IMG/VR virus record: IMGVR_UViG_3300036860_000214
DNA length: 64,000 nucleotides
Direction: 5' to 3' (one strand)
Origin: an uncultured virus (IMG/VR IMGVR_UViG_3300036860_000214)
Lineage: Duplodnaviria; Heunggongvirae; Uroviricota; Caudoviricetes
Both the position numbers and the translations under genes were made by a program. Positions 1,925-43,958 of the stretch are shown here, piece after piece. Below the pieces are notes generated by a model that saw only the letters and a program-made list of their open reading frames with translations, did not search any database and had not been told where the DNA came from. Position 1 is the first letter of the stretch. Each line of letters opens with the position of its first letter.

Positions 1925-1927
1925 CGC
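1874..1927. repeat. 27-bp tandem duplication at the start of the MazG-like gene
   Basis: gtcgcggatcagcttgacg(g/a)tcaccgc x2, giving VKLIRD twice. Confidence 0.9.
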
Positions 1928-4176
1928 GTCCCCCTCCCCGCATCGTCGCCGGCCAGGGTCTGGTCGAACGCGGCCTGGTCGGCGGCCTCGGGGTCGGACC
2001 CGGCCGGAGGGGCTTCCCCAAGCTGATCCCCGGCGCTTGCGCGACCGGGCACCTCCGACCGGGACCGTCGGCCCCCACGGCCAGCGGGGGAAGACGCCGG
2101 CCGTGGGGACGTGGAAGCCTCGGTGTTGGGCGGTTCGTGACCGGCGGGGACGTCGGTGTCTCCGGGCCCGGTGACCGAGGCGTTAGTGTCCGAGGCGGCT
2201 CGAGATGACGGCGGGCCCGCCGTCGGGGCCGCGGGCTGCGCATGCCCCCGCCCCACCGCCTCGGACGTGAGGTCCGACCCGGTTTCGCCTGGGGGGGCCT
2301 GGGCTACTCCCGGGTCGGACGTTTCAATGGCACGTGGCGTCACGGCACGGCAGGCATCCAGTAGCACCGTCACCCAGCTCGCCAGGTTGGCGTGGCGCCA
2401 GAAGTCCTCCCAGACCTCGCCGAACGCCTCCACCTCGGCGACCTTGACGGCCTCGCGGTAGCGGTCGGACACGATCTCGCGAGTGACGAGCTCCTTGGCG
2501 GCGGCGACGCTCTCAAGCCCGCGGATGGTGTCCTCGGTGGGGATGCCGCCCTCCACGACCGCGAACCGGCTGATGGTCGCTTCTGGTTCGTCGCGGTCGG
2601 CCTGGGCCATCTCGTCGGTGGTGTAGACGCCGCCGAGTTCATGCGGGAACGTAGCCCGCCACGCCAACGCCTCGGCGCAGTTGCCGCAGCGCATCGAGAA
2701 GCCGTTGCGGCGGACGACGATCTCGCCGGACGGGACGGTGACGCACCACACGCGGCCGCTGGTGTTGTAGGTGAGGGTCAGCCCGGTGCGTCCGCTGGCG
2801 TTGCCCTTGCTGCGCGAGCTGGGCCGGCCCCAGCGGATGACCGGGATGTCGCAGCGGTCGCTGATGGTGAACATCCAGTTCGGCTTGGTGGCGATGTCGG
2901 AAGTGCGCGGCGCCGGCCGGTTGACCGCATAGCCCGCCACGACGCAGGCGACCTCGAACAGCCGGGCGTGGTCCTCCCGCGAGGTGTAGAAGCGGCGGAC
3001 CCCGGTGCGGGCGTTGATGCTGCCGTCGAAGTCGATGAGCGCATCCACGAACACGCGGGCCTGGCGCCGCGAGAGCGCGAGCATGCCAGCGGGGTCGATC
3101 CGCTTGCCGCTGTAGACCCAGCCCGGCACGGCCGACCAGTCGTAGACGAATCGGCGCTTGTCCGAGCGTGTCGTGATAGTCCGCGTCTCGGTCTGCGCCA
3201 CCATGCCTGCGGTCCGGCGGACCTGCTCATCACGGTGGAGGCCGAGCGCCCGCAGGGCCTCGACCTTGCGCTCGCGGGACACCTCGATCTTGAAGCTGGT
3301 GCCAGCGTCCGTCCCGTCGGCGAGGTAGGCGGCGGCCAGGACGAGCGTGGCGTCCTTGACCCGCGACTCAGGCGCGGAGGTCTGGACGGTGCGGGGAATC
3401 CACGAGCGGGGCTTGGTCCTGGCCTGATCGTACAGCTCGGCGGCCGGAACCTTGCCGTGGGTGGTCACCATGTCGTGGTTGGGCGTGACGCAGAAGTTCA
3501 GGTCGTCGCTGAGCAGCGTGACCATCTCGCCGTCATAGGGCTGCACGAACGGGCGGGCACCGGTCGCCCGTAGCCCCCGGTCGGTCACCTGGAGGATGCG
3601 CCCGGTGACTTGGCCGAACGGCTGGAAGCCTTGGTCGGTGAGGACCTCGGTGTCCTCTGAGAAGCACTTGGCGAGCTGCCCGGCGGGCCGGTCGGTCCAC
3701 ATGCGGGTGACGCCGCCGTCGCGCTTGGTCTGCCGGTACTCCCGCCACAGCGCCACCGCCCAGCGTGGCTCGCGGTAGCCCTTGCGCAGCACTCCGAACC
3801 TAGCGGCCGCCGGCGGCGTCTCGGACAGCCAGGCGTCGACCCACTTGCCGTCGGGGCCGCACCAGTAGGGGCCGAGCTGCGCTTCGACCTCGCCGGTCCG
3901 GTGGGCGACCAGCCGGAACCCGTCAATGCCGGGTTCGATGGAGATTTTCGACTCCATCTGGTTCGTGTCGGCGTTCCATTCCTTGCGGCGGATCGCGCGG
4001 ATCTGCTGCGCGAACGGGTCCAGCCCCATTCGCTGCGCGGTGGCCAGAAAGAGCTGCAACTCGTCATCGGAGGCGCCTTTGGGCATGAGCGTCCGCTTGA
4101 GCAGACCGATCTTCTCCTCCGACCACTCACCGATGCTCGTAACCTTGTCGCCCTTTCTTGCAAGCTGCGAGCTCAT
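1921..4176 (-). CDS. bet: Bet/RecT-family single-strand annealing recombinase containing an intein
   Basis: ASDDELQLFLATAQRMGLDPFAQQI...GIDGFRLVAHRTG...MW...QLAK|intein|CAEALAWRATFP..LGGVYTTDEM. Confidence 0.9.
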   Translation of the reverse strand: MSSQLARKGDKVTSIGEWSEEKIGLLKRTLMPKGASDDELQLFLATAQRMGLDPFAQQIRAIRRKEWNADTNQMESKISIEPGIDGFRLVAHRTGEVEAQLGPYWCGPDGKWVDAWLSETPPAAARFGVLRKGYREPRWAVALWREYRQTKRDGGVTRMWTDRPAGQLAKCFSEDTEVLTDQGFQPFGQVTGRILQVTDRGLRATGARPFVQPYDGEMVTLLSDDLNFCVTPNHDMVTTHGKVPAAELYDQARTKPRSWIPRTVQTSAPESRVKDATLVLAAAYLADGTDAGTSFKIEVSRERKVEALRALGLHRDEQVRRTAGMVAQTETRTITTRSDKRRFVYDWSAVPGWVYSGKRIDPAGMLALSRRQARVFVDALIDFDGSINARTGVRRFYTSREDHARLFEVACVVAGYAVNRPAPRTSDIATKPNWMFTISDRCDIPVIRWGRPSSRSKGNASGRTGLTLTYNTSGRVWCVTVPSGEIVVRRNGFSMRCGNCAEALAWRATFPHELGGVYTTDEMAQADRDEPEATISRFAVVEGGIPTEDTIRGLESVAAAKELVTREIVSDRYREAVKVAEVEAFGEVWEDFWRHANLASWVTVLLDACRAVTPRAIETSDPGVAQAPPGETGSDLTSEAVGRGHAQPAAPTAGPPSSRAASDTNASVTGPGDTDVPAGHEPPNTEASTSPRPASSPAGRGGRRSRSEVPGRASAGDQLGEAPPAGSDPEAADQAAFDQTLAGDDAGRGTR
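2680..3666 (-). mobile_element. Intein (329 aa) with LAGLIDADG-type endonuclease
   Basis: Begins CFSEDTEVLT, block B CVTPNHDM, motifs AAAYLADG and ALIDFDG, ends VWCVTVPSGEIVVRRNG...CGN followed by extein Cys. Confidence 0.9.
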
Positions 4177-4699
4177 CGGTTAACTCCTTCACCCGTGCTT
4201 CCAATGCCGCCACGCGGTCGTGCTGGGCCAGCATGTGCAGCCGGCGATGCGCAACGTGCGTCATCGCCTCCAAGTTCTCGGGGCGGTTGTCGTCGCGGAT
4301 GCCGTTCCTGTGGTGGACGTGCCAACCCTCGGGCAGCGGCCTGCCGTTCGCCTGCTCCCAGACCAGGATGTGCTCGCGGACGTAGCCGCGCCTGGAGGCC
4401 TTCGGATGCTCCGGCATGCGCACCATCACGTAGCCGCCAGAGATGTGGCGGCCGCCGTTCCACCGGGGATTGCGCTCGCCAGTGAACCGGCCACTCTTGC
4501 CGAGCAGGATCAGCGAGTCGTCGTGACTGCGCGCCTGAATACCCCACTTCCTGAACCAGTAGTGAACCGCTCCCTGTGTCACGCCGTAGCGTCTGGCGAT
4601 CTCCGGTTGGCTGAGCTTGTCCTCCCAATACAGCCGCATGAGCGTGTCGGGCGTGAGCCCTTTCAGGGCGAACTTGTTGTGTCCCTGGGCCACTGGCAA
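4127..4699 (-). CDS. HNH endonuclease with N-terminal HTH
   Basis: KLSQPEIARRYGVTQGAV; NPRWNGGR; GYVREHILVWE...VHHRNGIRDDNRPENLE. Confidence 0.9.
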   Translation of the reverse strand: MPVAQGHNKFALKGLTPDTLMRLYWEDKLSQPEIARRYGVTQGAVHYWFRKWGIQARSHDDSLILLGKSGRFTGERNPRWNGGRHISGGYVMVRMPEHPKASRRGYVREHILVWEQANGRPLPEGWHVHHRNGIRDDNRPENLEAMTHVAHRRLHMLAQHDRVAALEARVKELTDELAACKKGRQGYEHR

Positions 4700-4825: not shown

Positions 4826-6410
4826 TCATGCTGACGCCTCCAAGGTCTCGCAGTCGTCTGAGGGCACCCACGCGCGACCCTTCGGCAGGTCCAGCAGCAC
4901 CCACAGCCGGCCGCTGTCCAGCCACAGCCCCCACACGGTGGAGGTGACGGCCTGGTAGGTCACCAGGTCGCCGAGATCGACCCGGCGGATGCGGTGGCGC
5001 ATCTGGCCGATGCCGTTCCAGCCGGCCATTAGTTCATCCCCTGGTTCTCTTGCGCCTCTCGCAGCGCCGCCCAGACCCGCGGCGGCACCGCCACCGACGG
5101 GAGCTGCGCGGCGTCGTTCAGGCGCGCCTGGGTCAGGTCGCGGATGATCCGCTCGGCCTCGCCCAGTTGGACCTCGAGGCGGCCGGCGTAGTCGCGGTAG
5201 GCGAGGAATCGGCGGTTCCAGCGGGCGGTGGTGGCGACCTGGCGGCAGTAGGCGTCAGCGAGCGCCACAGCCTGCCGCCGTGTCCACCAGCGACCCACGG
5301 CGACCCCGACCAGCACGCCGAGCGCCACCAGGGCGCCGACGGCCAGGAACGCGGGCAAGGTCGGGGTCATGGCGCACCGTCCCGATCAAAGCTGTCCAAG
5401 AGTTCGACGAGGCGGTTACGGGCAGCGCGCAGCCCAGTCGCCTCGCCCTTGGCGAAGGCGATCTCGTACTGCTCCTCTTTGTAGGTGTCGCCTGCCGGAT
5501 CAAGCTGGTCCAGGCGATCTTGGCGTCGGCGGGCGTCCCGCTCCCGGGACTCGGCCTCGATCTCCAGGAGTTCCCGGCAGAGTTTCAGTGCAGCGCGCTC
5601 GGCGCCGGTCATGACGACCCACCTCCCGCGCCGGCTTTGGCGGTGGGTGGCGCCTGGGCGGTGACCTGCCGGCACTCCCGGCACCGCGGGTCGTAGACGT
5701 GCTCCCCGTCGGCGCCCTCGGCGTGGCCGGGCGGCGGCTGGTCGTGCCGCTGGGCGGCGAGCAGGTCGAGGGAGTCGCGCACGAACGGAGTCATGGCCGT
5801 CTCCCCGCCGTCGTCGTGGTGGTGACCGGGAGCGCCCGCAGGACCTCGTAGACGCCGAGGAGTGCTTGGTTGGTGGTGCCGACAAGCTCGGGTAGGCAGG
5901 CCTGCCGCAGCTCGTTGACGGCGCCCTCGAGGTGGCCGGCGGCCAGGTTCAGGCGAGTGCGGGCCTTACGGGTGTGGTAGGTGCGGGCGGCGCTGAGGAT
6001 CATGGCGAACGCTCCGGGGCGGGCAGGGCCAGATGCTCGACCAGGGTCGGGTAGCAGCCCTCGTCGAAGTTGCGGACGAAGGCGTAGACGTGCTCGGGGA
6101 ACTCGAACCAGTCGCCGCCACCGAGGTCGACCATGTCCAGGTCGATGGCGACGTAGGCGAGCCCCAACCCGGGGACGCGCCAGCGGACGAAGTTGCCCAG
6201 CGGGCAGTTGGTCGCCTCGCCGCGGCGTCCGGTGATGCCGAGGTTGTGCAGCAGCCGGGCGATCTCGGTGGGGTAGTTGGGCAGGTCGTGTACGGCGTAC
6301 CAGGCGCGCTCGATCGGTGGGACCTCCCGCCACGTCGGCGGCTCGGTGGGTGGGCCGACGTCGATGCGGCGGCGCTCGGTCGGAGCGAGAATCGCGGTCA
6401 TGGTGTCCAC
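4826..6410 (-). other. Run of small coupled hypothetical early genes (e.g. 4826-5029, 5029-5370, 5609-5794, 6000-6410)
   Basis: Short minus-strand ORFs with overlapping stop/start codons; 5029-5370 has an N-terminal TM helix. Confidence 0.55.
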
Positions 6411-7033
6411 CGCCCGACCTGGTTGACGTGCAGCGCCATCGCTTCAGCCTTGACCCGTTGCCGTCGTGCGCGCTCCCACTCCCGATGGCAGGCGCGGCAT
6501 GCACGCGCGCCAGCCTTGGTGATCCGCGTGTTCGCGTCATCAAATGGGTGGCCGCGCTTGCAGTGGGTCTGCGCCGCCGCCTTCGCTGATGGACTCGCCC
6601 CACGCAGCAAGTTCTCTCGGTGGGTTACCAGCTCCAGGTGCGCGGGGCCATAGCCGTCGCCAATGGCCTTCACGCAAAGCTTGGACGTGCAGCCGCGCTC
6701 CTTTACGTGGTCTGGCTCCAACCCTTCGGGGATCAACCCGACCAGTAGCGTGTAGGCATAGCGATGGGCACGGACGCGACGGGTGGGATTGCTGCTCAAC
6801 CAGAAGCGGCCATAACCGTCCCTACTCGTCTGGCCCGTCCACAGCCAGCACCCAGTCCCATCGCCCTTGTCGACCTGCTCCCAGAAGCGATATTCAGGCG
6901 GGCCGATGAGCCTGCGGCGCCTGATGACTCGCGGGTCGCCATATCGCTTCCACGTCCAATAGTGCGGCTCGCAGTAGCCCTTGGCCTTGTGCGGGTTGTC
7001 GCAATCCGGAAGCGAGCAGGTACGCTTCGCCAC
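6398..7033 (-). CDS. HNH endonuclease
   Basis: GTG start 7033; CSLPDC...RFWEQVDK...CWLWTG...AHRYAY...PDHVKERGC...HLELVTHRENLLRG...THCKRGH. Confidence 0.9.
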   Translation of the reverse strand: MAKRTCSLPDCDNPHKAKGYCEPHYWTWKRYGDPRVIRRRRLIGPPEYRFWEQVDKGDGTGCWLWTGQTSRDGYGRFWLSSNPTRRVRAHRYAYTLLVGLIPEGLEPDHVKERGCTSKLCVKAIGDGYGPAHLELVTHRENLLRGASPSAKAAAQTHCKRGHPFDDANTRITKAGARACRACHREWERARRQRVKAEAMALHVNQVGRWTP

Positions 7034-7119
7034 GGCGATCCCTCCCAGGGGGGGTCGTCCACGGCCCGGGGTGTTCCCGCACGCCCGGGCCACTCTGTGG
7101 CCGTATTCTAGCAGGTCAG
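7034..7119 (-). promoter_or_regulatory. HNH leader motif, copy 2
   Basis: TGACC-TGC-TAGAAT-ACGGCCACAGAGTGGCCCGGG...CCCGGGCC...CGACCCCCCCTGGGAGGGATCGCC-GTG. Confidence 0.75.
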
Positions 7120-9460
7120 GGGGCATATTGGCGGCTCCCGCTGCGGCATTCGATCAGGTGCAAGGCGCGTCGCGGGGCCAGCTCCGGCAGGTCATGGGCC
7201 TGGCGGTGGAAGTCGCGGGCGTTGCGGTGTGGCCGGCCCATGTCGACCCAGACCACGTAGCGCAGCGGGTCCGGCCAGGCGATCGGCGTGCCACCGGGCC
7301 GCCAGCCCGGCTCATAGCCGACCGGGTCCTGCTGACCGGGGAACCACAGGTCGACGTCGGCGACGATGCCGCCCACCACGGCCAGCGGGACGAGGGTCGC
7401 GGCGGTCATCGGGCCGCCCACCTGCCGACCGTGGCAGCGTAGCTGCAGAGCGCCTCAGCAACCTGGGCATTCATCGCTGCGCGGGTCGCGTGGTAGTCAC
7501 GGAATCCGTCGGCCTGCGGGTGCGTATCCTCGATCCGCTCGAAGACGCGGGCAGAAGCAATGGCCCGGTCGGCTGCTTCAGCGGCACCGAGCAGCGCGTC
7601 GCGGGCGCTCAGGATGTCGGCGGCCTCCACCCGGCCGTTGGTCGCGCTCATGACGCACCCCCGTCGCTGCCGTGCCGGACCAGCATCCCGGCCTTGACCG
7701 CCAGGGCGTCCTCGGCACGTTCGACCTCGACCAGGAAGCGGAGCGTCGTGATGGCCGTGGCGACGGCGCTCATCCGGCGGGCGACGTCGTCCTGGTACAG
7801 GCCCGCGTCCATGTCGATCAGGGCTTCCTCGGCGGCGAGTTCGGCGGATTTGGCGTTGGAGCGGAACCGGCCGGTGAACGGGTCGCGGCCGCCGGCGACC
7901 TGTCCCATCGACCAGGGTTGGAACCTGCCGGGGTGCTGGGCGGGCAGGGTGTCGCGGTGGACGATGCGCCCGTCGAGGCGGTAGGCGGCCATGGCGGCCA
8001 CCTCGGGGTTCTCGTGCCACCAGTGGTCGACGATCTCGTCGAAGGCGACCTCGCCGCCGCAGTCGGTGCAGGTGGCGATCTCGGTGATGAGTGGCCGACC
8101 CGACCCGGCGGCGTCGCTGCCAGCGTCCGCCCGGGACGCGACTCCCGGGGCCGGAGCGGCGGGCGCCATCCCCATGGCTTGGCCCGGGACCTCCGCCGGG
8201 GTCGGGTCGGCCTTCGGTGCCGCGCCAGTGGGGGCTGGGGCGGCGGGGTCCAGTTCCTGTCGAAGTTGCAGCGTCCTGCGCTGATCGGCCTCGAACGTCG
8301 TCTCGCTACCTGGGTCGATTCGGTGGACCATGCGGGCTACACTCCCCCTTGACTTGAGGCGCTGCCTTCTCGGTTCGCTCCCGTTGGCGGCGCCTCGGGC
8401 GTTCACGGACCGGTTGCCTGCTGCCCCACCTCCTTGCGGACCCCGGGCCAGCCGTCGTCCAGCCAGGCACCCAGCGCGGCGTGCAGCTCCATCACCGCGT
8501 CGCGATCCAGCAGTGCTGCGCGGCCGCCGCCGGTCGTGCGGTGGAACACCTTGACGAGCAAGTCGTCGGTGATCGGCCGGACATGGCGGGCGGTCACCTG
8601 CAGGACGGTGTTGTCCCGCTCCAGGTGCTCGAACAGACACGGCGTCACGGTGCCGCCTCCTTGTTGGCCGGCAGCCGCCGGGCGAACTCCGCTAGCAGTT
8701 CAGGCGGAACCACCCAAACCTCCGGGAGCGGGTCGGTGGAGAGGAAACGCCGCAGGGCGTCCTCGAACTGGTCGGACAGGGCCCGCGCCGGCGGGGTCCG
8801 CGGCGGGCGGGTCGGGGCTGAGCGGGTCGGTCCCGGGTCAGTGGGACGCCGGCGCGGGCGGCGGGTCATGGGATCGCCCCGACGGCCAGGCTCACCAGCC
8901 ATACCAGCACCACGGCCGCCGAGATCAGCCCGAGCGCGCTATCCCACTTCACGTACTCGACTTGGGCGCGGGTCGCCCTGGCGTCGCGCAGCGGGTCGGG
9001 GGTCGGGGTCATGGCGCACCGGCCTGGTCGGGTCGGTTGATCTCGTGTGCCTCTAACTGCCAGCCACCGCGTGGTGTCTCCTCAGTGCATGGCTGGCAGA
9101 ACGGGAACAGCAGATCGTTATCGCCAAAGCCGAGCGAGCCGAGCCCCTGGCGTTGGCCCCATTCATCCAGCCCGACGTGGATGTGCGGCTGGCCGCTGCC
9201 GATGGGTTCGCCACAGCCGAAGCAGATGTGATTAGCCTCGTGGGTCATCGACCCACCTCCCGCGACCCGCGGCGGGCGCCGACCCGGCAGGCGACCACGA
9301 CCACCCCGGTCACCGGACCCGCCTCCCGCTGTAGGCGCGCCACAACACGACGCAGGCGGCCTCTACCCCGACGACCACCCAGCCGCCGAGCAGCGCCGTC
9401 GCCGCCATCGACACCAGCAGCACCGCCGAGACGGCGAGGTTGTGGAGGGTCGCGGGGTCC
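7116..9460 (-). other. Run of small hypothetical early genes (e.g. 7116-7421, 7648-8331, 8403-8648, 9009-9248)
   Basis: Coupled short ORFs with no recognisable family. Confidence 0.5.
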
Positions 9461-9851: not shown

Positions 9852-10786
9852 CGCCTCACGACGGCGCCGAACTGGGCGAAGTGGGTCAGGAAGCAGGCCG
9901 GGTCAGGGCCGAGGTAGGCGAACACCGACCCGTGCGTCGAGGTGGTCGTCTTGGCGCGGCCGGCAGAGTCGAAGTCGATGCGGTGGTCGGTGAAGCACAA
10001 GGCATGGCCCCAAAGCGGCTGAAACCAGTCGGTGTCGGTGCAGTGGGCGTTGACCAGCGCGACTGCGGCGGTGACGTTGCCGGCCTGGCGCTCATCAACC
10101 AGCTTGGTGACGAACTCGCCGGCCAGCCGGCCGTAAGGCGGGTTCAGAAACACGCGGCCGCGCCAGGGGTGCGCCAGGCCGTCGTCGTGCTTGGTGAGGA
10201 TGCGGGTTGCCTTGACGATCTGGTTGGCCGCCTCGGATGAGGCTGGGTCGAGGTCGATGCCGCCGAGGACCTCGCGGGCGGCGTCCAGGTAGCGGACCGG
10301 GGTGTACCACTCGTTCTCGGTGGAGGCGACCAGCCGCGCGCCTGTCTCGCCGGGATAGGCGTAGGCCAGCACACCGTAGGTGGTGATCTCGCCTTCGCCA
10401 TCTGGGTCGTCCAGGACGGCGCGGATATAGCCCTCGAAGGTGGGCTCGGGAATGCGGGCGATCTCCTGCCAGCGGCGCGCCTCCCGTTCCTTCAGGCCGG
10501 CCTCTTTGACCGTGGCCTGATACTCGGAAATGGGGGCAACGTCGCCGCCATTTCCGGATGGCCGTCCGGCTTCACCGCGCTCCAGCGGCTCAAGCAAGTG
10601 GCCGCCTTTGCGCTTGCCCTGGAGCTTGGCGGCGGCGATGCGGTTCTGCTCCTCGTGCTGGAGCCCGACCTGCTTGGCCAGGGTGTGGAGCGCCTCGAGC
10701 TTGCCGACGACGGCGGCGACCTCGGGCACGGTCCGGGCCTGTTCGATGGCCTGGGCCTCGGCGGGTAGGGCGGCCAGCTCGGTCAC
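9839..10786 (-). CDS. Phage DNA N6-adenine methyltransferase with N-terminal helical extension
   Basis: NEWYTP...GGIDLDPAS...DDGLAHPWRGRVFLNPPYG. Confidence 0.9.
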   Translation of the reverse strand: MTELAALPAEAQAIEQARTVPEVAAVVGKLEALHTLAKQVGLQHEEQNRIAAAKLQGKRKGGHLLEPLERGEAGRPSGNGGDVAPISEYQATVKEAGLKEREARRWQEIARIPEPTFEGYIRAVLDDPDGEGEITTYGVLAYAYPGETGARLVASTENEWYTPVRYLDAAREVLGGIDLDPASSEAANQIVKATRILTKHDDGLAHPWRGRVFLNPPYGRLAGEFVTKLVDERQAGNVTAAVALVNAHCTDTDWFQPLWGHALCFTDHRIDFDSAGRAKTTTSTHGSVFAYLGPDPACFLTHFAQFGAVVRRWQP

Positions 10787-11043
10787 GAGGCCGCCTTTCC
10801 GGGGTCGACGGAGTTGAGAGCCTCGGCGAGTAGTTCGTTCGCCGGCTCAGTCAGCAGCTCATCGAGCGGCACGCCGAGGGCGTCGGCGAGGGCGCGCACA
10901 GTGGACAGCGGTGGCTCCTTCACCCCGCGCGTGCCCGTCTCGTAGTTCGAGATCGTCTTGCTGGTCAGACCGACGCGGCGTGCCAGCTCGTCCTGGCTCC
11001 AGCCCTTCGCCTCGCGTAGCTGCTTGACGCGCTGTCCGATCAA
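10783..11043 (-). CDS. XRE/Cro-CI HTH regulator heading the early operon
   Basis: RVKQLREAKGWSQDELARRVGLTSKTISNYETG...LADALGV. Confidence 0.9.
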   Translation of the reverse strand: MIGQRVKQLREAKGWSQDELARRVGLTSKTISNYETGTRGVKEPPLSTVRALADALGVPLDELLTEPANELLAEALNSVDPGKAAS

Positions 11044-11205: not shown

Positions 11206-11631
11206 ATGGGAGCGCGAGAGTTCGGCCGCTTGGTCGAGCAAGCCATGGCCAAGAAGGAGATGTCTCAGGCCAGACTCGCCGTGCTGGTGGGCATCTTGCC
11301 GGAGGGCAGGGTGCTCAATGAGACCCAGATCCGCCGCATTCGTGAGGGCAGCCGGCGGCTTGACGAGGTGCTCGTCAGCCGGCTGATCGGCCTGCTCGAC
11401 CTCGACCCGGCCGAAGCCTGGCACGCGGCCGGGCTCTGGCCGCAAGGGCTCGACCCCGAGGATCTGCGAGACATCTCGGAACTACGGGCGGCCCGCCTGA
11501 CGGCGGCGAGTCGGGCCGCGTCGCCTGAGGGGGCTTCGCTCGCCGCCCCCATCTCTTCTTCGTCCGATCCTGAGGACCTTATGCGCGCTTGTGCGCCATC
11601 CGCAGGTCAGACCCTGCCTGAGGCGGCCTAA
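11206..11631 (+). CDS. HTH protein, probable immunity repressor
   Basis: FGRLVEQAMAKKEMSQARLA...QIRRIREGSRR; divergent from the XRE gene and upstream of the integrase. Confidence 0.65.
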   Translation: MGAREFGRLVEQAMAKKEMSQARLAVLVGILPEGRVLNETQIRRIREGSRRLDEVLVSRLIGLLDLDPAEAWHAAGLWPQGLDPEDLRDISELRAARLTAASRAASPEGASLAAPISSSSDPEDLMRACAPSAGQTLPEAA

Positions 11632-12704
11632 TGCCGGTCGCGCTTGTCCCCCTTGTGGCCGACACGCAATCGGCAGAACTAGGGAGCCTCGTGACGTTTC
11701 GGCCGCCTGGGGCGTATACCACATTGCGCGCAGCCGCATGGGGGGGGATGCGGATGACGGTCCCATCCGCACGGACAGCCTGGAAGCTCTACGAGGAAGA
11801 TCTGGCGCTCGGCCGCCTCGGCAAGCGCCGCCGCCCCAAGACCATCGCCGGCTACCAGTTCGTCATACTGGACTTCTGGGCCTATATCCACCCGATCCCC
11901 TGGACCCACATCACCCCCGGGGACCTGGACCGCTACCTCTGCCGTCCCGCCCGCCAGGGAGGCCGCCGGCCCGGCGCCCCCCTGGCGCCGAACTCCCGCT
12001 CGCTGTACTCCGGCGCGATCTGCGCGTTCTACGACTGGTCGGTCCAGCGCAAACTGCTGAAGCGCAACCCCTTGGAGGGAGTGCGGCCGGAGCCGAAAGT
12101 CGAGCCGCCCGCGCGGGGGCTGGAGCTGGAGCAGATCGGGGCGCTGCTGGCCGCCACCGCCCACCGCCCCCGCACCCACCTCGCGGTCGCGCTGGCGTTC
12201 TTCGCGCTGCTACGAAGTGGGGAGATCAGCCGGTTGCGGGTCGAGGACGTCGACCTCCGCGCCGGCGTCATGGTGATCCACGGCAAGGGCGGCGCCATCG
12301 ACGCGATCCCGGTCCACTTCCGGCTGCGGCCCCTGCTGGCCCGGTTCCTGGACGGCCGGCCACCGACCGGGCCGGTGATCGAGTCGCTGACCCAACCCGG
12401 CCGCCACGTCAGCTCGAGAACGGTGTCGCGGCTGATCGGCCAGGCGATGGTCGACCTCGGCTGGTCGGAATCGGCCCATGTGCTTCGCCACTCGGCTGCC
12501 TACCTCATTTTGGAGGCGACCGGCAACGTGTACGCGGTGTCGCGGTTGCTGCGCCACCGTCGGCTGAGCAGTACCGAGAGGTACGTGCGTCTCTTCGACC
12601 GGCGGCTCGCCGCCGACCTGGCCCGCCTGCCCGACCCGCGGCATGGCGACCCGGCCCGGCCCGACCCGCGTCGGGGTGGGTCGCGGGAGGTGCCGCATGG
12701 CTGA
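11631..12704 (+). CDS. int: Tyrosine recombinase/integrase, XerC/D-sized (start may be nearer 11748)
   Basis: Catalytic R (LLRSGEI), K (HGKGG), HxLRH (HVLRHS), LLRH and Y (TERYV). Confidence 0.92.
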   Translation: MPVALVPLVADTQSAELGSLVTFRPPGAYTTLRAAAWGGMRMTVPSARTAWKLYEEDLALGRLGKRRRPKTIAGYQFVILDFWAYIHPIPWTHITPGDLDRYLCRPARQGGRRPGAPLAPNSRSLYSGAICAFYDWSVQRKLLKRNPLEGVRPEPKVEPPARGLELEQIGALLAATAHRPRTHLAVALAFFALLRSGEISRLRVEDVDLRAGVMVIHGKGGAIDAIPVHFRLRPLLARFLDGRPPTGPVIESLTQPGRHVSSRTVSRLIGQAMVDLGWSESAHVLRHSAAYLILEATGNVYAVSRLLRHRRLSSTERYVRLFDRRLAADLARLPDPRHGDPARPDPRRGGSREVPHG

Positions 12705-13359: not shown

Positions 13360-15763
13360 CCGGTCCGGAGTTGGACCTGCTGGAGGGTGGCGGCGGCAAT
13401 GCCGACCTGTACGCCGGCCTGCTGCGCGGCGGCGGCCGGGCCGTGCATGCCAGCCGCTGCGAGAACCCCTATGGGCAGTTCGGCCGCGCCCCGTTCATGG
13501 TGACCGCGGCCGCCGACTACGTGAGCCGCCTGGCCGTTCAGGCCAGGACCAAGGCCCGCGGCCAGTTGATCGGCAAGGTCGACTATCAGCGCTACTACGC
13601 CCTGCGGGTACCCCGGTGACCGCGACCCGCCGCGTCAAGGTCGCCTGCGCCGGCCTGCCCCGTACCTGAGAGGACACCTGATGCTCGACCCGAAGGGCCA
13701 AGCTCTCGAAGAGATCAAGGAGCGCGCCAGCGAATTGGAGGACGTGAGCTACCAGCTCGTCCAGCTCGCCGACCTCGGCTACGAGTGGGTTCGCCCCTAC
13801 GTCGTGAAGGTGCGCCGCCTGATCGATGACCTCTTTGCGGAGGCTGAGGACAAGCTGGGACCGGACCCGCAGGACGTGGCCGAAGCCGCCTACGAGCGTT
13901 CGCTGGAGCTGGGCTGATGACCGAGCACTTCACCGCCGGGAATCCAACCTTCCACCGTCACCACAGCCCGGTCGTCGGCTTCGCCCCGCTCGACCACGGC
14001 CATGATGGTGGTGACCTGAACCACGGCCACGGCGACCTCGGGTATGTGTGCTCGGCCAAGATCCCCGACGAGCGTGGCGAGCGCATCACCGCCGCCTTCG
14101 TCGACCCTTGCCGGAGTTCCTACCTCGAAGCCATCGACCACGAGCGGGGGTACGGCGCCTGATGGGGGTCGAGCGCTCCACTACCGGGAACCGCCCACCG
14201 CGCGTCAAGGTCGCCTGCGCCGGCCTCCCGGTCGTGACCCGCGGTCGGGAGGACCCGACCGACTATGACGAGCTGCCGTCGTGCGGCTGGTCGGGGGAGC
14301 GCGCCGCCGGCCCGGGTGCCACCCGTCGCCCCTGCAAGCAATGCGGCGGACGGGTCGAGCTGGTCGGGCGCACCCCGGACCCGACCCTGGACCTGGTCGC
14401 CCGGAGGAGGCTGCACGGATGATGCGTACCCCGCCAACACCGCCGAAGCAGGCCATCGACCGGGGTCACCGGCCCGAGTGGGACCCGCCCGCCGCCCTCA
14501 CTGCCGCGGAGCGATGGACCTGTCCCTACTGTGGTGATGCGGTCCTTCGGTACGGCAACGTCATCTACGGCTCCGCGACCGAGCGGGACTGCCCGGCCCG
14601 AGTCGCTGAGGCGGTGGCGCCGTGACCCCGCGACCCTGCACCTGGCCTGACGGCGGACGGGGCGTCCCATGACCGAGATGCGGGGCAACTGGGAAGACGA
14701 CCGATCCACGCTCGGCTGGGTCCGCATGCCGTTCGAGCGGACCTGCCATCTCTGCCGCCGCGGTGTCATGCACACCAAGGCCGAGCACGACCTGGTGTAC
14801 CCGGCCGACCGGGAGGCCCTGCTCGACTGGGAGCGGGAGGAGGAGCGGCGACAGGCCAAGGCGGACGAGGAGCTGCTGGAGCGGTTCATCGCTGATGGCA
14901 TGACCGAGGACGAGGCCGCCGACGAGCTGTGGCGGTGGATGGCGCAGGGCCGGGGCCTGGTCGAGCCGGGGCCGCGACCGTGACCGAGCAGGCGACCCGT
15001 GACCTGCCCCAGCCCGAGCCGGAGAAGAGGTATCGGACGCCTTCACAGGAGGCGCGCTGCGCGCCGGGTGGCCGCCGCTGCGACCACCCGCCGGTCGCCG
15101 ACATATTCCGAGGTTCCTACCGGCCCCGCTGGTACGGCATCTGCGCCGACCATCTCCGCAGGCTCAACCGCGAGGTTCGCGACGGGCGGGTCTGGTGGCT
15201 GGGCTACCCGGAGGGCGAGGGCTGATGCTCGAGGGCGCCGCGATCCTGCTGGCCGGCATGGTGCTCGGCCACTGGCTGAGTCGCCGCATCCTGAACCTGC
15301 GGCTGCGGGGCCTCGGCAAGCTGCCACCCAAGCCGGTGTGCTCGTGCAAGCACGCGCCGAGCTTCCACGACCCGAAGACCAAGCACTGCCATTACCGGTG
15401 GAAGGCGCAGGTGAACCTCATCGACACCTGGGTGACGTGCGACTGCCGCCGCTACGACGGCCCAGAGCCGCTGCCGGAGTTCTACGCCCCGGAGCTCAAC
15501 CCATGAGGCGCGTCCTAGTCGTCCTGCTCGGCCTCGGCCTGGCCGAGCTCAGTGGTGCCGCCGACCGGGATCGGCCCCCCGTCCCGGCGGCGGCGCCTTC
15601 CCTCATCACCGGCCACGAGTTCGAGCCGTGGCGGTACGAGAGCGGCAAGGTGATCTGCCAGTACTGGGACCCGGCCCACCCCACGCGGGGGATCTGCGAC
15701 CGGCCTAAGAGCGAGCACGCCCGGGTCCCGATCGACGAGGAGGCCGCTCAGGCCGATTCGTGA
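13356..15763 (+). other. Run of small coupled hypothetical genes (e.g. 13681-13917, 13917-14162, 14669-14983, 15225-15506)
   Basis: Short, often Cys-rich ORFs with stop/start overlaps. Confidence 0.5.
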
Positions 15764-16320
15764 GTCCGGTCGTACATGCGGTACAGGGTCGGGGTGAACC
15801 CGGCCAGGTGCCAGCCCCACGGCCCCTCCAGCGCGGCGGCCAGAGTGGCGTCGCCGGCGGCGCCAAGCTGGAACGCCAGATGCCGCAGGCCATGCAGGAG
15901 CACGTCCCAGTGGCGCACTTCCGGGGCCTCGGCGGCGCCGTGGGTGGGCGGCTTGCCGACCGCCTGGGCGACCCGGGTGCTGACCGGTCGGGCCTCCGGC
16001 CAGCGTGACCGCACAGAACCGGCGCAGCGGATGACGGCCATGTAGGTGAGCACGGCTGCGGCGCCGTCGACCCGCGAGGACGTCTGGTGCAGCAGGGCGG
16101 TGTCGCCGAGCATCTGGTTGCGGATGAGCTCCAGCTCGAGGTCGGCATGGGGGTCGCCGTCGGCGGCGATGGGTGGGGTGGCCAGCGGCCAGGTGCCGGT
16201 GAGTAGCCAGATGCCCTGCTCATCGGCGGCCAGTGGCCAGACCTCGGCGGTGACGTGCATGAGTCGGGACGGTTCGGGCGGGCTACCGTGCTGCCAGCGG
16301 TCGAGTTCGGTCGCGGACAT
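15748..16320 (-). CDS. Degenerate NUDIX-like fold protein
   Basis: VTAEVWPLAADEQGIWLL...LLHQTSSRVD...VLTYMAV; no intact Nudix box. Confidence 0.45.
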   Translation of the reverse strand: MSATELDRWQHGSPPEPSRLMHVTAEVWPLAADEQGIWLLTGTWPLATPPIAADGDPHADLELELIRNQMLGDTALLHQTSSRVDGAAAVLTYMAVIRCAGSVRSRWPEARPVSTRVAQAVGKPPTHGAAEAPEVRHWDVLLHGLRHLAFQLGAAGDATLAAALEGPWGWHLAGFTPTLYRMYDRTHESA

Positions 16321-16322
16321 GG

Positions 16323-16637
16323 CTACTGCTCCTTCCGTGCGTCCAGCGCAGCCTGCAAGAGCTGGGACGCGCGCTGGCGGGACCGTGGCTGCGACCGGCT
16401 GATGCGGCTGGCCAGCTCGGTCAGGCTCATCTCCTCGCTTGACCAGATCCGCTCGACCTGCTCGGCGCGGAGCCGGCTGGCCTGCTCGTCGTAGACCTTG
16501 CGGACGCCGGTGGCCAGTTCGTCGGCGCGGTCGAACGCCTCCTGCGGGTCGCTGATGTTCTCGATGATGGCGGCTGCCTCCTCGTAGGCCCGTCGAATTG
16601 CGTCCAGGGCCTGGGCGACTGCCTGCTCGCCGGTCAT
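16323..16637 (-). CDS. Small regulator with C-terminal HTH
   Basis: LRAEQVERIWSSEEMSLTELASRI..SRQRASQLL; divergent from the 16740-19484 operon. Confidence 0.6.
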   Translation of the reverse strand: MTGEQAVAQALDAIRRAYEEAAAIIENISDPQEAFDRADELATGVRKVYDEQASRLRAEQVERIWSSEEMSLTELASRISRSQPRSRQRASQLLQAALDARKEQ

Positions 16638-17067: not shown

Positions 17068-17754
17068 ATGACGCCCGACCGTCCCCGGAGCGCCGGCACG
17101 ACCTCGGCGCTGCTGCTGATCGTGCTGCTGGCCGCCGACCTCCGCGGCCTGGTCGACGTCGGCGCGGTGGCCGGCGGGGTCGTGCATCTGGGTGGCGCGG
17201 TTGCCGTCGGGGTGCTGGACGGCTACGACGCCGTGCTGGCCAGCGCCTGGCCATCTACGCCGCCGAAGGCCAAGCGCCGCCGCCGGCGGGCCAAGGTTGT
17301 ACGGTCGGATTCGCCGCCGCCGAACTCACCAACCTCTGCCGGCATCCCCCCCACCTACCTGCGCCTGTACCGGGAGGCAGGCGCAGGTGAGCGGTGGTGC
17401 ACCCAGGCCGGCGACTGCTACGACGCCTGGGCCGTGCTGGCCAGCATCGGCAACATCGAAAGCGTCCACGGTCAGTCCCGGGCCCCGGGGGTGCGGTCGG
17501 GCGTCAACGCCTTCGGCTGCTGCGCCGGCCCGATGCAGTTCAACCTCCGCAACGGCCCGCCGTCGACCTGGGACACCTGGGGCCGCGGCAACGTGTACGA
17601 CCCGCGCGATGCCATCCCCGCGGCCGCGCGGAAGCTGCGGGGCGACGGCGCCCGCCGCGACCTCGACGGCGCCCTGCTCGCCTACAACGCGAGCTGGGGC
17701 TACGTGAACGATGTCAAGGCGCAAGCGCGCCGCTACCACCAGCAAGGAGCGTGA
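17068..17754 (+). CDS. Membrane-anchored lytic transglycosylase (SLT-like)
   Basis: IPPTYLRLYREAG...WAVLASIGNIESVHG...AGPMQF...YDPRDAIPAAARKL...ALLAYN. Confidence 0.85.
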   Translation: MTPDRPRSAGTTSALLLIVLLAADLRGLVDVGAVAGGVVHLGGAVAVGVLDGYDAVLASAWPSTPPKAKRRRRRAKVVRSDSPPPNSPTSAGIPPTYLRLYREAGAGERWCTQAGDCYDAWAVLASIGNIESVHGQSRAPGVRSGVNAFGCCAGPMQFNLRNGPPSTWDTWGRGNVYDPRDAIPAAARKLRGDGARRDLDGALLAYNASWGYVNDVKAQARRYHQQGA

Positions 17755-17757
17755 TCC

Positions 17758-18225
17758 ATGCCGCATTCTTCCCAGACCTACGACCCCGGGGGCCGTCCCG
17801 CCGGTGGTCGCCTCGGTCGCCTCGGCGTGCGCCGCAACCAGCTCACCGGTGCGCTGGCGCTGGTCATCGGCGGCCTGGTGATGATGACCCTTGGCCCCGG
17901 CCGCGGCCTGCTCGTCCTCGGCCTGACCTGGGTGCTGGTGCGCTTCCTGGCCAGCCACCGCGACGACGGCGGCCGCCGCCAGCAGGTCCGGTCCATGGTC
18001 GAGTACGCCGCCGTGGCGGCGCTGGTGGTCGCGGTGCTGACCGCCATGCCGGCGCCCGCCCCGCCCAAGGCCAAGGCGCCGCCCCGCCGGCCAGCAGCCA
18101 CTGAGCGCGCCCAGGTCGACCCGTGGGGCATGTGGCGCACCCGCTGGGACAAGTTCGTCGACCGGGTCAGCACCAAGGCGCCCGTCATCCAGTTCGGCAC
18201 CGACGCCAAGGAAGGCCACCGATGA
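17758..18225 (+). CDS. Membrane protein
   Basis: Three hydrophobic segments. Confidence 0.6.
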   Translation: MPHSSQTYDPGGRPAGGRLGRLGVRRNQLTGALALVIGGLVMMTLGPGRGLLVLGLTWVLVRFLASHRDDGGRRQQVRSMVEYAAVAALVVAVLTAMPAPAPPKAKAPPRRPAATERAQVDPWGMWRTRWDKFVDRVSTKAPVIQFGTDAKEGHR

Positions 18226-18271
18226 TCTCCGGTCATGTAATTACGCCGCTGTGCTTCCTGGGAGGCCGCTG

Positions 18272-19045
18272 ATGTGGTCGTCGCTCCCCTCCAACCTGCG
18301 CGCCGTGCTCGGCACCGCGCTGTTGCTCGGCATCGGCGTTGCCGTCGCCGCGTTCGCCCTGTCGTTCTTCGCGCTGCGCGCGGCCGCCTCCAACCCCGCA
18401 CTCGGCTGGGGCGCCAACCACGCCTGGCTGTTCCCCATCGGCATCGACATGGCGCTGGTGTTCTTCGAGGTGCTGCTGATCGGCGCCTCGATGGTCCGCA
18501 TCCACGACAAGAACGGCGACGTCGTCCCATACCCGCGGGTGATCCCGTTCGCGCTGGTGCTGGCCGCCGGCGCCGCCACCCTGTATTTCAACGCCGAGCG
18601 AGTTCCCGAGCAGGTCCGACCGGTCGCGCTGGCGGTCCCGGTCGCGTCCATCCTGGTCACCCTCGGCCTGGCGTACCTGCTCAAGATGCTCGCGGCGGCG
18701 TCCGGCGTCGAGGCGATCCACCTGGCGCCACCGACCGCCAACCCGCGACCGATCGTCCGGTCGTCCGACATCCTGCACGCCGATGCCGTGCGGGTGCCGG
18801 TGGGGGAGATGCCAACGTCAGATAGGTCGAGAACCGGGGCAAACCGGACAGTGGGGGAGCGGCCTGGTGGGGGAGAGCGCGGCGCCACGACCCGGGCCAT
18901 CGAGGCGGTCGTGGCCGACCTCGACCCGACCGAGCTGACCGAGATCGGCGACCAGGGTGTGGTCGGGTTGGTCGAGGAGCGGTATGGGTTGCTGACCACG
19001 CCCGGCTACGTCAACAAGGTGCGCCGCAACGGGGCGCACACATGA
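18272..19045 (+). CDS. DUF2637/SpdA-like four-TM protein
   Basis: AFALSFFALRAAA...AWLFPIGIDMAL; four TM helices plus C-terminal tail. Confidence 0.7.
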   Translation: MWSSLPSNLRAVLGTALLLGIGVAVAAFALSFFALRAAASNPALGWGANHAWLFPIGIDMALVFFEVLLIGASMVRIHDKNGDVVPYPRVIPFALVLAAGAATLYFNAERVPEQVRPVALAVPVASILVTLGLAYLLKMLAAASGVEAIHLAPPTANPRPIVRSSDILHADAVRVPVGEMPTSDRSRTGANRTVGERPGGGERGATTRAIEAVVADLDPTELTEIGDQGVVGLVEERYGLLTTPGYVNKVRRNGAHT

Positions 19046-19235: not shown

Positions 19236-19484
19236 ATGGGGCCACTGCTGCCCGTCGAGATCCAGCCTTGGTACGAGCAGGCGGCCTGCCGTGGTACTAA
19301 CGCCGACTGCTTCTTTCCCGAGAAGGGCGGCAGCACCCGGGCCGCCAAGCGGATCTGCCAGACCTGCCAGGTGACGGCCGAGTGCCTGGACTACGCGCTC
19401 GACAACGACGAGCGGTTCGGCATCTGGGGCGGCCTGTCCGAGCGCGAACGGCGGCGGCTCAAGCGGCGCCATCGGGTGGCGTAG
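19236..19484 (+). CDS. whiB: WhiB-family Fe-S transcription factor, close to WhiB/WhiB2
   Basis: AACRG...FFPEKGGSTRAAKRICQTC...CLDYALDNDERFGIWGGLSERERRRLKR. Confidence 0.95.
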   Translation: MGPLLPVEIQPWYEQAACRGTNADCFFPEKGGSTRAAKRICQTCQVTAECLDYALDNDERFGIWGGLSERERRRLKRRHRVA

Positions 19485-19510
19485 GATGCCGCTGTCCCCG
19501 CGTTCCCCGC

Positions 19511-19538
19511 GTTCCCCATAAATTTGATTATGTCAACC
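19511..19538. other. dif-like XerC/XerD recombination site
   Basis: GTTCCCCATAA-ATTTGA-TTATGTCAACC, an 11-6-11 arrangement forming an AT-rich intergenic island. Confidence 0.75.
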
Positions 19539-19571
19539 AACCGGACGTATCCGACAGCAGAAGGATAGCAC

Positions 19572-20021
19572 ATGGGCGCTCCCCCGACCGACCGCGAACG
19601 CCTCGCCCTGGCCTTCGATAACCTGCGCCGCCGTGGCTACCTTGCCCCGGTGGAGTTCGCCTGGACGGAGTGCTGCGCGTCCTGCGCGATGGCCCACCTC
19701 GACCACCTTGATCCTGACCACGCGGCCCGCGGGTTCGTGTTCTGGCACATCCAGAAGGATGACGCCGCCTTCATCGAGCCGGACGGCCAGCCCTACCCCG
19801 AGCGGTTCGCCGACCGCGACGAGGAGTGGCTGGAGGCCCACGCCGAGGAGGTGGATGCCGCGCTGCTGGATGAGCGGCTGAACCACTGGACGACGCTGCG
19901 GGCGCCGCTGTGGCTGCACTGGGGCGGCGACCGTTACACCATCGTCCGCACGCTGCGCCGGCACGGCTTGCATGCCAAACTGCCACCCGATCCGGATGTC
20001 TGCATCGAGGTCCACCCGTGA
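19572..20021 (+). CDS. DUF6891-like protein
   Basis: LALAFDNLRRRGYLA...CCASCA...GFVFWHIQ.D...LWLHWG...LRRHGL. Confidence 0.55.
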   Translation: MGAPPTDRERLALAFDNLRRRGYLAPVEFAWTECCASCAMAHLDHLDPDHAARGFVFWHIQKDDAAFIEPDGQPYPERFADRDEEWLEAHAEEVDAALLDERLNHWTTLRAPLWLHWGGDRYTIVRTLRRHGLHAKLPPDPDVCIEVHP

Positions 20022-20885
20022 CCGACCCGCCCGCCTCGCGTCCCGCGCCGGTTCCCGACCCGCCCCACGACCCGGCGGTGGCACTGAAGGCGCGACTGGA
20101 CGAGCTGGTGGCTGACGTGCAGCTTGCCCCATGGGCCTGCAACTGCGGCGAGATCCATGGCGAGGCCGCAACCGTCCGTGAGGTCCGTATCCCCGACCCC
20201 GACAGCATCCCCTACTGGTACATGTGGACGCTGGAGATGACAGGCGCCCACGGACAGCGGGCCAACTGGACGACCGGGCTGTCATCGGTGCTGGACTGGC
20301 GGATGGTAGAGGCCATGTTCGCCGAGTACTTCCCGGCGGGACGATGACCGACCCGCCCCGCGACCCCGCGGACGGCTGGGAGGCGCGCATGGCCGAACGT
20401 GCCACCGCCCGACGCGCTGAGCAGGAAGAGGCTGAACGGCAGCTCTTAGCCCGTCAGCGACCACCCGACCGGTCGACCTGGCCCGTCCCTGAGCACCTGA
20501 AGGGCTACAGCGCCCGAGACGTGTTCCTGTGGTACGTGATGGATGGCTGGCGCCGCATCCTCGGCGGCGAACCGAAGGTGCTGTTCGACCACGACTTCGG
20601 CTTCCATGTCATCAGCGACGGCATCTGGCAACTGAAGCTCGCGGACCTTGATGAGTTCCCTGACGAGCGATTCCCGGAGTTGGGGCCGTGACCGACCCGC
20701 CCAACGACCCCGACCCACTGGCCGAACTGACCCAGGAGGAACGGGAGTTCGTCATCTGGGCGCTCGGCTACGTCGAGGGTGCCGCGCTGGAGATGCACGA
20801 CGACCGGACCGGCTACCGGGCCAGCGTCATCGCCGAGAAGCTGAAGCACCCGCCGCAAAGCGAAACGAGCCGCCCCGCCCCGTAG
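20018..20885 (+). other. Three coupled hypothetical genes (20018-20347, 20344-20691, 20688-20885), each starting MTDPP
   Basis: RTGACCGACCCGCCC at 20018, 20344 and 20688. Confidence 0.75.
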
Positions 20886-20952
20886 GGCAGAACGGCTCGC
20901 AGTCCGCGATCTCGCACCGGCCGTACCGTAGCACGACCCGCCGACAGCCGGG

Positions 20953-21192
20953 CTACTCCCGCGGCAGGTCGTGGTCCTTGACCGGCCGGCGGGCGAACAG
21001 CGTCGGCGCCACCGTCTTCACCGGTGCGTTGTTGACCTTGTAGACCCCGGCGACGGTGCCGGCCGCCAGCAGCAGCCCGACCCACGGCCGGTACTGGGTC
21101 GGGATCGATTCCTGCGGGACCAGCAGGACCAGAGCGACGGCGAAGCCGAGCGCGGCGGTGATGGCCTTGCGGACCCTCCCGATTCGCCTCAT
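20953..21192 (-). CDS. Holin-like two-TM protein
   Basis: RKAITAALGFAVALVLL...WVGLLLAAGTVAGVYKVNN; at the end of the lysis region. Confidence 0.65.
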   Translation of the reverse strand: MRRIGRVRKAITAALGFAVALVLLVPQESIPTQYRPWVGLLLAAGTVAGVYKVNNAPVKTVAPTLFARRPVKDHDLPRE

Positions 21193-33446: not shown

Positions 33447-33983
33447 TTACATCGTTCGGCCCTGCCGCTTGCGCTCCCTGTGCCGCCGCTTGCGCTCCCG
33501 GTCCTGCTTGCGCACGCAGGTGCGGCAGTGCCGGTGCCCCTCTGGGTCGCGGTAGGTGTTCTCGGGGCTGTACGGATGCCCCTCGGGGCAGTGGGTCTTG
33601 GCCTGCTGCCGCGCAGCGACCGCAGCACCGCCCTGGCCGCGGCGGTTGTTCTCGGCCGTGGTGGCTGGCTCAAGGTGGGCCGTGTTCTGGCAGCGTCGGT
33701 GCAGACACGCCGAGCCGCCGGGGCATGCCGGATCGGCGTTGTGGCACTGATGGTCGAGCTTCAACCCCTCAGGGATGGGGCCGACCACCTGCTGGTAGAT
33801 CCAGCGATGGGCCAAGATCGGTCTGCCGTGCCTGACCGCGAAGTAGCCGTAGCCATTGCGGAGGATGGCGCCCGTCCACGGCCAGCACTCGTCGGGGCCG
33901 CCCCGGTCGACCTTCGCCCAGAAGCGTTCCTGGGCGGTCGGGACCGGATCGGATGGACGGCTTCCCGGGATACCCTTCGGCAT
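33447..33983 (-). CDS. HNH endonuclease
   Basis: RFWAKVDR...CWPWTG...AHRWIY...LDHQCHN...HLEPATTAENNRRG...THCPEGH. Confidence 0.9.
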   Translation of the reverse strand: MPKGIPGSRPSDPVPTAQERFWAKVDRGGPDECWPWTGAILRNGYGYFAVRHGRPILAHRWIYQQVVGPIPEGLKLDHQCHNADPACPGGSACLHRRCQNTAHLEPATTAENNRRGQGGAAVAARQQAKTHCPEGHPYSPENTYRDPEGHRHCRTCVRKQDRERKRRHRERKRQGRTM

Positions 33984-36782: not shown

Positions 36783-36786
36783 CCCC

Positions 36787-37481: not shown

Positions 37482-37495
37482 GGGATACTCCTTGC

Positions 37496-38640: not shown

Positions 38641-38672
38641 AGACTTCCTCGCACACGAGGGGAGGTGGCAGG

Positions 38673-39778: not shown

Positions 39779-39804
39779 ACACCGATTTTATCGCAAAGCA
39801 TCGT

Positions 39805-42023: not shown

Positions 42024-42039
42024 GCTGTACCCTTTCGGT

Positions 42040-43949: not shown

Positions 43950-43958
43950 CGGCGCCCC

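Follow-up and report, generated by a model that had tools for sequence, protein, structure and literature searches.

A host-type Xer site, which on the evidence of its sequence is real, conserved and optional, is present in integrase-bearing actinophages, among them the tailed phage analyzed here (G000). The function that we tentatively favor, giving it not quite an even chance, is that host XerC and XerD recombine phage circles with each other and not with the chromosome. The G000 record comprises 64,506 bp, and all positions are numbered as in the window, which is the whole stretch of 64,000 nucleotides that was analyzed.

A dif-type site between phage genes

The site occupies positions 19511-19538 and reads GTTCCCCATAA-ATTTGA-TTATGTCAACC, an 11-6-11 layout. 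It is a real site of the predicted dif type for XerC/XerD, with two 11-bp arms, an inner dyad and a 6-bp center. The predicted XerC-binding arm, GTTCCCCATAA (19511-19521, plus strand), has 8-10 of 11 bases in common with the left arm of all five chromosomal difs of the likely host class. The predicted XerD-binding arm, TTATGTCAACC (19528-19538, plus strand), agrees at 9-10 of 11 bases with the difs of that class and with both other phage sites described below. Between them lies the predicted strand-exchange region, the center ATTTGA (19522-19527, plus strand), which differs from every host center seen.

The first-pass annotation had placed a dif-like sequence in an AT-rich intergenic patch between whiB and the next operon, with phage genes on both sides and a recombinase about 7 kb away. 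The sequence and the patch after whiB are confirmed; the site overlaps the 28-mer of lowest GC in the genome (9/28 G+C, start 19512). Phage genes do flank it on either side in the window annotation, and the recombinase gene ends 6.8 kb before it. The site is also intergenic, 26 bp past the whiB stop (19484) and 33 bp ahead of the next start (19572), but the "next operon" does not hold, as the next gene shares the strand of whiB. The site is single-copy and non-coding, and it is single in the two related phages (G001 and G131:C311) as well.

The pattern ATAA-N6-TTATG occurs at one place in the 64,506-bp record, its two matches being both strands of one site, and none of 100 dinucleotide shuffles of the window yields two such matches (mean 0.00). 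We scored the genome with a two-arm matrix made from the arms of seven chromosomal difs of the G029 class, which were chosen by the dif pattern, so that their inner positions agree by construction. With this matrix the site scores 33.9 bits versus 7.6 bits for the next best match (its own reverse strand), which bears out the prediction of a dif-type site. The maximum in 500 triplet-shuffled genomes was 19.2 bits, and the score of the site is within about 1 bit of the weakest self-score of a host dif (range 34.9-40.6). Its XerD arm is the best in the genome when scored by itself (18.9 versus 11.4 bits).

A KOPS-like motif, in its E. coli form, shows no polarity around the site (9 toward and 8 away), and no promoter or terminator pattern was found at the site; TTGACA is present there on the minus strand. 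A tandem repeat of about 2.6 copies of a 9-base unit (19494-19517) runs into the XerC arm. The other two phage sites are instead preceded, at a distance of a few bases, by CTCTC, as are several host difs.

Chromosomal dif sites and the likely host

Predicted actinobacterial difs have the form NNNNCCGATAA-N6-TTATGTCAAGT or close to it, judging by the 60 rows inspected among the 66 of a published table (PMC3025954). The G000 site resembles the chromosomal difs of Actinomycetota tabulated there, where XerC, XerD and FtsK resolve chromosome dimers, in its 11-6-11 layout, in being single and intergenic, and in the XerD arm TTATGTCAA, as found in most of the rows inspected. It differs from chromosomal difs in that it lies in a phage, has a center that begins with A (as in no host dif examined) and lacks a polarized KOPS-like motif.

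Scanning 401 Actinomycetota genomes with the dif pattern, we found it in 218, and many of the high-G+C genomes have CCCATAA where others have CCGATAA. In the class of genome G029 (22 genomes), all five chromosomal matches have a left arm of the form CCCCATAA, as does G000, and the Cs fall outside the search pattern. The AACC end, also outside the pattern, is shared with G000 by four of the five. A search allowing one mismatch adds two chromosomal difs, for a total of 7 of the 22 genomes. The single dif-pattern match in a further genome of the class, G131, sits on phage contig C311; it was therefore counted as a phage site and is included in neither matrix. The difs of the G029 class are flanked by ordinary metabolic genes, and the gcvP neighborhood found beside the difs of G029 and G074 recurs beside that of G229. 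In G196:C104 there is a second dif-like sequence (16556-16583) about 480 bp from the main dif and on the same strand, which could be the trace of an element at dif.

ATTTGA matches the centers of the five class difs at none of the three XerC-side bases and at no more than one of the three on the XerD side. Its first base, A, begins none of the centers in two sets of genome-derived difs (0/23 and 0/7, with three genomes common to both sets) and none of the 60 rows inspected by eye among the 66 of the published table (PMC3025954). Centers within the host class also vary among species (1-6 of 6 bases in common), and with a chromosomal dif recovered in just 7 of 22 class genomes, the center of the true host may still match.

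As anticipated by the first-pass annotation, matching the site to predicted actinobacterial difs also points to a host group through the arms. The likely host belongs to the uncultured Actinomycetota class of G029, a class picked once its dif arms had been seen. In all 22 genomes of this class, whiB is 76-87% identical in nucleotide sequence to that of G000, compared with 70-80% for the best phage records. Close homologs of the DUF2637 and transglycosylase genes of G000 are also found in the class, the DUF2637 protein being 77% identical in G542. Two related circular phage contigs, C311 and C315, are binned in one actinobacterial genome, G131. The XerD model scores above its curated cut-off in four of the five host-class genomes tested, and four of the five have a second Xer paralog at 297-323 bits.

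No integrase match was found in the 21 genomes of the class of G148 at E 1e-40, but this search is no control for the host assignment because the cut-off would also miss C311 (1e-33). Among 185,579 species genomes, no relative of the integrase exceeds about 32% identity across the protein. Two public soil-metagenome runs contain the G000 phage, and the record may derive from one of them.

Sites in related phages

Conservation in relatives, which the first-pass annotation had named as a way of checking the site, was found in G001 and in G131:C311. G001 (60,242 bp) has an integrase 93% identical to that of G000, and its site, ATGGTTGATAA-TCCTCA-TTACGTTAACC, lies exactly 26 bp past its whiB stop. 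This is the sole TAA-N6-TTA in G001, and within the 21 kb examined it overlaps the 28-mer of lowest GC. The G000 and G001 sites have 16 of 28 bases in common, against only 8 in the next 28 bases. A 1.9-kb block comprising cro, the repressor gene (rep) and the integrase gene (int) is 92% identical between the two phages, yet their centers share 2 of 6 bases. On account of this block, the two phages probably have one host range.

Contig G131:C311 (60,043 bp) is circular by a 141-bp end overlap, has a full tailed-phage gene set and was binned with a member of the G029 class. Its site, CTCCCCCATAA-TAAACA-TTATGTAAACC, is located between genes, 1.1 kb past an integrase gene whose product is 34% identical to that of G000. 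The orientation to the rep-int operon is the same in all three phages, and the neighbors differ (after whiB in two, 1.1 kb after int in the third). Agreement across the three sites is highest in the XerD arms, at 9-10 of 11 bases, compared with 5-9 of 11 in the XerC arms and 1-3 of 6 in the centers. XerD-arm scores range from 17.8 to 21.3 bits in the three phages. Two of them also have a complete XerC arm of host type (13.3 and 16.1 bits); that of G001 is degenerate (3.8 bits, versus 14.9-18.2 in hosts).

The site is optional among cro-rep-int relatives, being found in three of five. No site was detected in the complete circular relative G131:C315 (44,790 bp, 141-bp end overlap; best 6.5 bits) or in G008 (73% complete; best 12.0 bits). 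Twelve close metagenome contigs of 1-7 kb end short of the site region. Among capsid relatives, TAA-N6-TTA occurs in 2 of 20 records, G003 and G021, and G009 and G013 have none. A candidate in G003 (13.2-16.7 bits) was dropped because it is inside a primase-polymerase gene, as was a match in L327 inside an ORF. The named phage collection yielded only whiB matches and chance matches.

The cro-rep-int cassette and the phage recombinase

The integration cassette of G000 consists of a Cro-like HTH gene (10783-11043, minus strand; Pfam HTH_3, E 4.9e-18) divergent from a predicted repressor gene (11206-11631, plus strand) and a tyrosine recombinase gene (11754-12704, plus strand; longest frame starting at 11631). 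The recombinase matches PF00589 only and has no arm-binding domain, and its R, H-x-x-R-H and Y motifs appear intact. It is not XerC or XerD: against the respective models it scores 82 and 60 bits, far short of the 335 and 330 that serve as cut-offs. Among solved structures it is closest to 5vfz "Gp33" (E 1.1e-20, versus 5.1e-6 for XerD 1a0p), probably the Brujita integrase. Tyrosine recombinases are encoded in G000, G001 and C311.

The last approximately 25 codons of the repressor gene are conserved at the DNA level and end in AA. G000 and G001 have repressors with 96% identity, and across 10 loci (two of which look identical) repressors diverge widely except in this tail, which ends in AA in nine and VA in one. 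The AA end is also found in G008 and not in C311, whose repressor homolog has an HTH. The joining of divergent repressor heads to one conserved tail and integrase in these 10 loci suggests that immunity specificity is swapped.

In BPs-type integration-dependent immunity, as set out in passages of three papers, the repressor gene contains attP, and its product loses a degradation tag upon integration (PMC3694055, PMC4557955, PMC8138268). The G000 cassette has the layout of this type, with divergent cro and rep-int in a unit of about 2 kb and an arm-less integrase, and by analogy the repressor tail likely contains the attP of the integrase, which would agree with the conservation of this tail in DNA sequence. 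Divergent cro and rep-int, an arm-less tyrosine recombinase and a repressor tail ending in AA are shared with the mycobacteriophages BPs, Brujita and Charlie. In contrast to these, for which the published passages covered mention no dif site, G000 has the site and also an excisionase-type HTH gene 0.4 kb past int. A search with the repressor tail found no attB, the matches in 46 of 401 genomes being at chance level (best E 2e-4), and the run contigs show no junction there. A contig break at 11580-11609 in run X1 was considered as a junction and is uninformative, there being no partner contig.

Possible functions of the site

Recombination of phage circles with each other by host XerC and XerD is suggested because the site copies both arms of the likely-host dif and has a center unlike any host dif seen. 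The host recombinases would bind the site on phage DNA, and a crossover between two identical site copies on a dimeric phage molecule would give back monomer circles. Activation of XerD could come from FtsK or a phage factor. Since both copies are identical, any center would do for dimer resolution, and one unlike that of the host would limit unwanted exchange with the chromosome. RecT, represented in G000 by a RecT-family annealing protein (1921-4176, minus strand; PF03837, E 2.7e-16), or host recombination would generate the circle dimers. The benefit would arise while the genome is circular, namely once it has entered the cell, once it has been excised, or during a carrier state without integration. 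Late in infection, by contrast, multimer resolution would counter concatemer packaging, a point against this function.

Consistent with self-resolution, the arms and orientation are kept in three related phages while the center freely changes, and the phage has a separate integrase cassette. Contigs from the two runs (19430-20981 and 19418-20051) cross the site unbroken. A parallel is provided by provirus G450, whose integrase gene lies at the end of the record and whose dif-like site is found 10 kb further in, with phage genes on either side. The absence of the site from C315 and G008 and the degenerate XerC arm of G001 count against self-resolution. A match to the XafT family, considered as a possible Xer activator, was rejected (17.7 bits, cut-off 70), and no other activator was found. 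Neither ParA/ParB nor plasmid replicon genes were detected in the 106 ORFs of the window (from a record short by at least 3.6 kb), in G001 or in the 67 ORFs of C311. With no partition genes found, a stable plasmid prophage like P1 is unsupported. Among the three functions that the first-pass annotation had proposed (integration at the host dif, dimer resolution in a plasmid-like prophage, or serving the phage recombinase), self-resolution fits best, but its pairing with a classical plasmid prophage finds no support.

Integration at the host dif would make the site an IMEX-type attP, at which host XerCD insert the phage into the chromosome by full or one-strand exchange, in addition to the route through the integrase. 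We consider this unlikely, though with appreciable weight. All phage dif mimics described in the sections available of three papers are attPs (PMC5357621, PMC7062461, PMC12715192), and the dif motifs of gokushoviruses vary most in the center and nevertheless integrate, according to the pertinent part of one of them (PMC7062461). The G000 site is identical to the G229 dif at 23 of 28 bases, including four XerD-side center bases, a center end found only in G229 and one other genome of its class (n=113). The center and XerD arm of G001 are one base off the dif of G148 and G135 (TCCTCA versus TCCTCC), and the C311 center has two of three XerC-side bases in common with G103 and G196. However, G148 and G229 are outside the likely host class and were picked for their resemblance to the sites. 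The idea is also weakened because ATTTGA fits none of the seven class difs known (0/3 XerC-side bases in the 5/5 compared), and exchange on each side requires matching center bases, as described for VGJ-phi and TLC-phi in the relevant passages of PMC5357621. Moreover, the centers of the sister phages differ despite the 92%-identical rep-int block. The two runs show no junction at the site, though contigs drop rare forms, and no related prophage bordered by dif, as the first-pass annotation had envisaged, was found, the related genomes seen being all free or fragments. The phage furthermore carries its own integrase cassette, whereas IMEX elements have no integrase.

A role in binding only is quite improbable in our estimation: XerD, with or without XerC, would act as a roadblock without exchange, for example by unloading SMC-type complexes or affecting transcription. 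The XerD arm is the conserved one, the center is free and the left arm of G001 is degenerate; XerD-only sites with a degenerate center unload SMC in Bacillus and Staphylococcus, according to passages of PMC9226527. On the other hand, XerD alone would not need the complete XerC arm of host type that is retained at two of the three sites, no link of SMC to the phage was found, and the site lacks a promoter or terminator pattern. It is more doubtful still that the site replaces a host dif that the integrase inserts into and destroys, the prophage providing a spare one a few kb in from its border. By analogy with phages that carry a spare tRNA in tRNA-dependent lysogeny (described in part of PMC10865867), such dif-dependent lysogeny, which we likewise hold to be doubtful, would have its attP in the repressor gene, and an internal dif with a private center would keep the lysogen chromosome resolvable while leaving XerCD unable to excise the prophage. 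A spare dif requires host arms and any center, as observed, and the site is 1-7 kb from int in a fixed orientation. The invariant CTTATG in the conserved repressor tail would also be a XerC-like arm on the opposite strand, but with 11.5 bits this arm comes fifth in the genome, no better than chance matches, and is unseen in the G008 and C311 repressor tails; nor was an attB found in the 401 genomes (best E 2e-4) or a tail junction in the run contigs. Very little probability goes to a core site for the arm-less recombinase of the phage itself, the weakest idea of the first-pass annotation. The enzyme is Xer-sized and without an arm-binding domain, and three of the five cro-rep-int relatives have the site, but the enzyme probably does not act on the site, because the arms track the host and not the enzyme: the G000 and G001 enzymes are 93% identical and their left arms agree at 5 of 11 bases, whereas the C311 enzyme is 34% identical and its left arm agrees at 9 of 11. 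In addition, the complete circle C315 has the cassette with its enzyme and no site (best 6.5 bits), and the BPs-type layout points to an attP inside rep. Equally remote is an origin by chance in an AT-rich patch, or an operator or promoter that has nothing to do with Xer. Intergenic palindromes rich in AT are frequent and TTGACA is found on the minus strand, but none of the 500 shuffled genomes attains even 22.9 bits, the site has no promoter pattern, and agreement at only 16 of 28 bases between phages with 96%-identical repressors is unlike an operator.

Occurrence in IMG/VR and relation to known systems

A first IMG/VR scan (pattern CATAA-N6-TTATGTCAA) gave 120 loci, of which none exceeds 65% G+C and none is a relative. 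Another scan, with one pattern of host-type arms, gave 120 loci from 21 of 64 parts, from which about 370 stretches are estimated. These loci have 72 different centers. In 107 of the 120 the free arm position is occupied by G, and in 94 the pattern is followed by T, as in real difs. Several sites are found amid phage genes, for example after terS (L370), before terS (L335) and in the gap between terL and primase genes (L348, L375). Among 27 dif-bearing records that are long or high in G+C, six encode a tyrosine recombinase and four a ParA-type ATPase.

In the literature covered on dif, Xer and phages, most of it from outside subscription journals, mimics are described only in inoviruses, double jelly-roll phages, microviruses and islands (PMC12715192, as far as its available text goes). 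Like the IMEX attPs (those of CTX-phi, VGJ-phi, TLC-phi, the gonococcal island, dif-type double jelly-roll phages and gokushoviruses), the G000 site is a dif mimic in a mobile genome, with the variable center or one degenerate arm seen among them. Those elements are non-tailed or islands, have no integrase and are dif-bordered, whereas G000 is a tailed phage in the 60-70 kb range with its own integrase cassette and no dif border found. The site also resembles the Xer multimer-resolution sites of plasmids (cer and psi, with pdif as a look-alike in sequence), in that host XerCD are predicted to act between the element's own copies and the center is unlike that of the chromosome. It differs from plasmid Xer sites in having no identified accessory sequences or partition/replicon genes, and there is one site per genome. 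The modules of pdif come in pairs.

Published accounts present phage dif mimics as attachment sites of elements that are small, non-tailed and without an integrase, and here they occur in tailed phages that have one. The combination of a variable center with host-type arms separates the use of host Xer from integration at dif, and a second use of XerCD by phages becomes testable on a 28-bp substrate. The arms acted as a pointer to the host, an uncultured Actinomycetota class that shares whiB and holds two related circular phages. The motif is widespread in IMG/VR, so the answer would extend far beyond G000.

Genome of G000 and neighboring genes

G000, with 70% G+C, encodes a terminase, portal, protease, HK97-type capsid, tape measure and endolysin. 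Its record is classed as linear and estimated as 100% complete, but G002, which is 99.9% identical, extends 3,589 bp past its right end (64506). This extra stretch, by which G000 is short of at least 3.6 kb, includes a DNA methylase.

The whiB gene (19236-19484, plus strand; Pfam PF02467, E 1.4e-25) ends 26 bp before the site, as in G001. Upstream of it are lytic-transglycosylase-like, membrane and DUF2637 genes (17068-19045, plus strand), with an SLT domain in the G001 homolog. The gene after the site (19572-20021, plus strand) encodes a DUF6891 domain (Pfam PF21831, E 2.9e-10) and has no tblastn match in G001 or G131:C311. No tRNA genes were found in the window. Two minus-strand genes at 15748-16637 and the transglycosylase-DUF2637 module at 17068-19045 are common to C311 and present in many copies in host-class genomes. 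Together they presumably resemble a module of actinomycete conjugative elements.

Glycosyltransferases, a GDP-mannose dehydratase, a C-methyltransferase and a SAM methyltransferase are encoded amid structural genes at 35714-53545, and this cluster may glycosylate the virion. AT-rich stretches ending in CAGGTCAA are located at 679, 26113 and 34039. Five or more genes of the HNH type and a single gene for endonuclease VII are distributed over the window (1206-1655, 4127-4693, 6398-7126, 33447-33983, 38909-39778 and 53909-54493). In G001, a LAGLIDADG domain, probably an intein, interrupts the DNA methylase gene (L208, 5149-7548).
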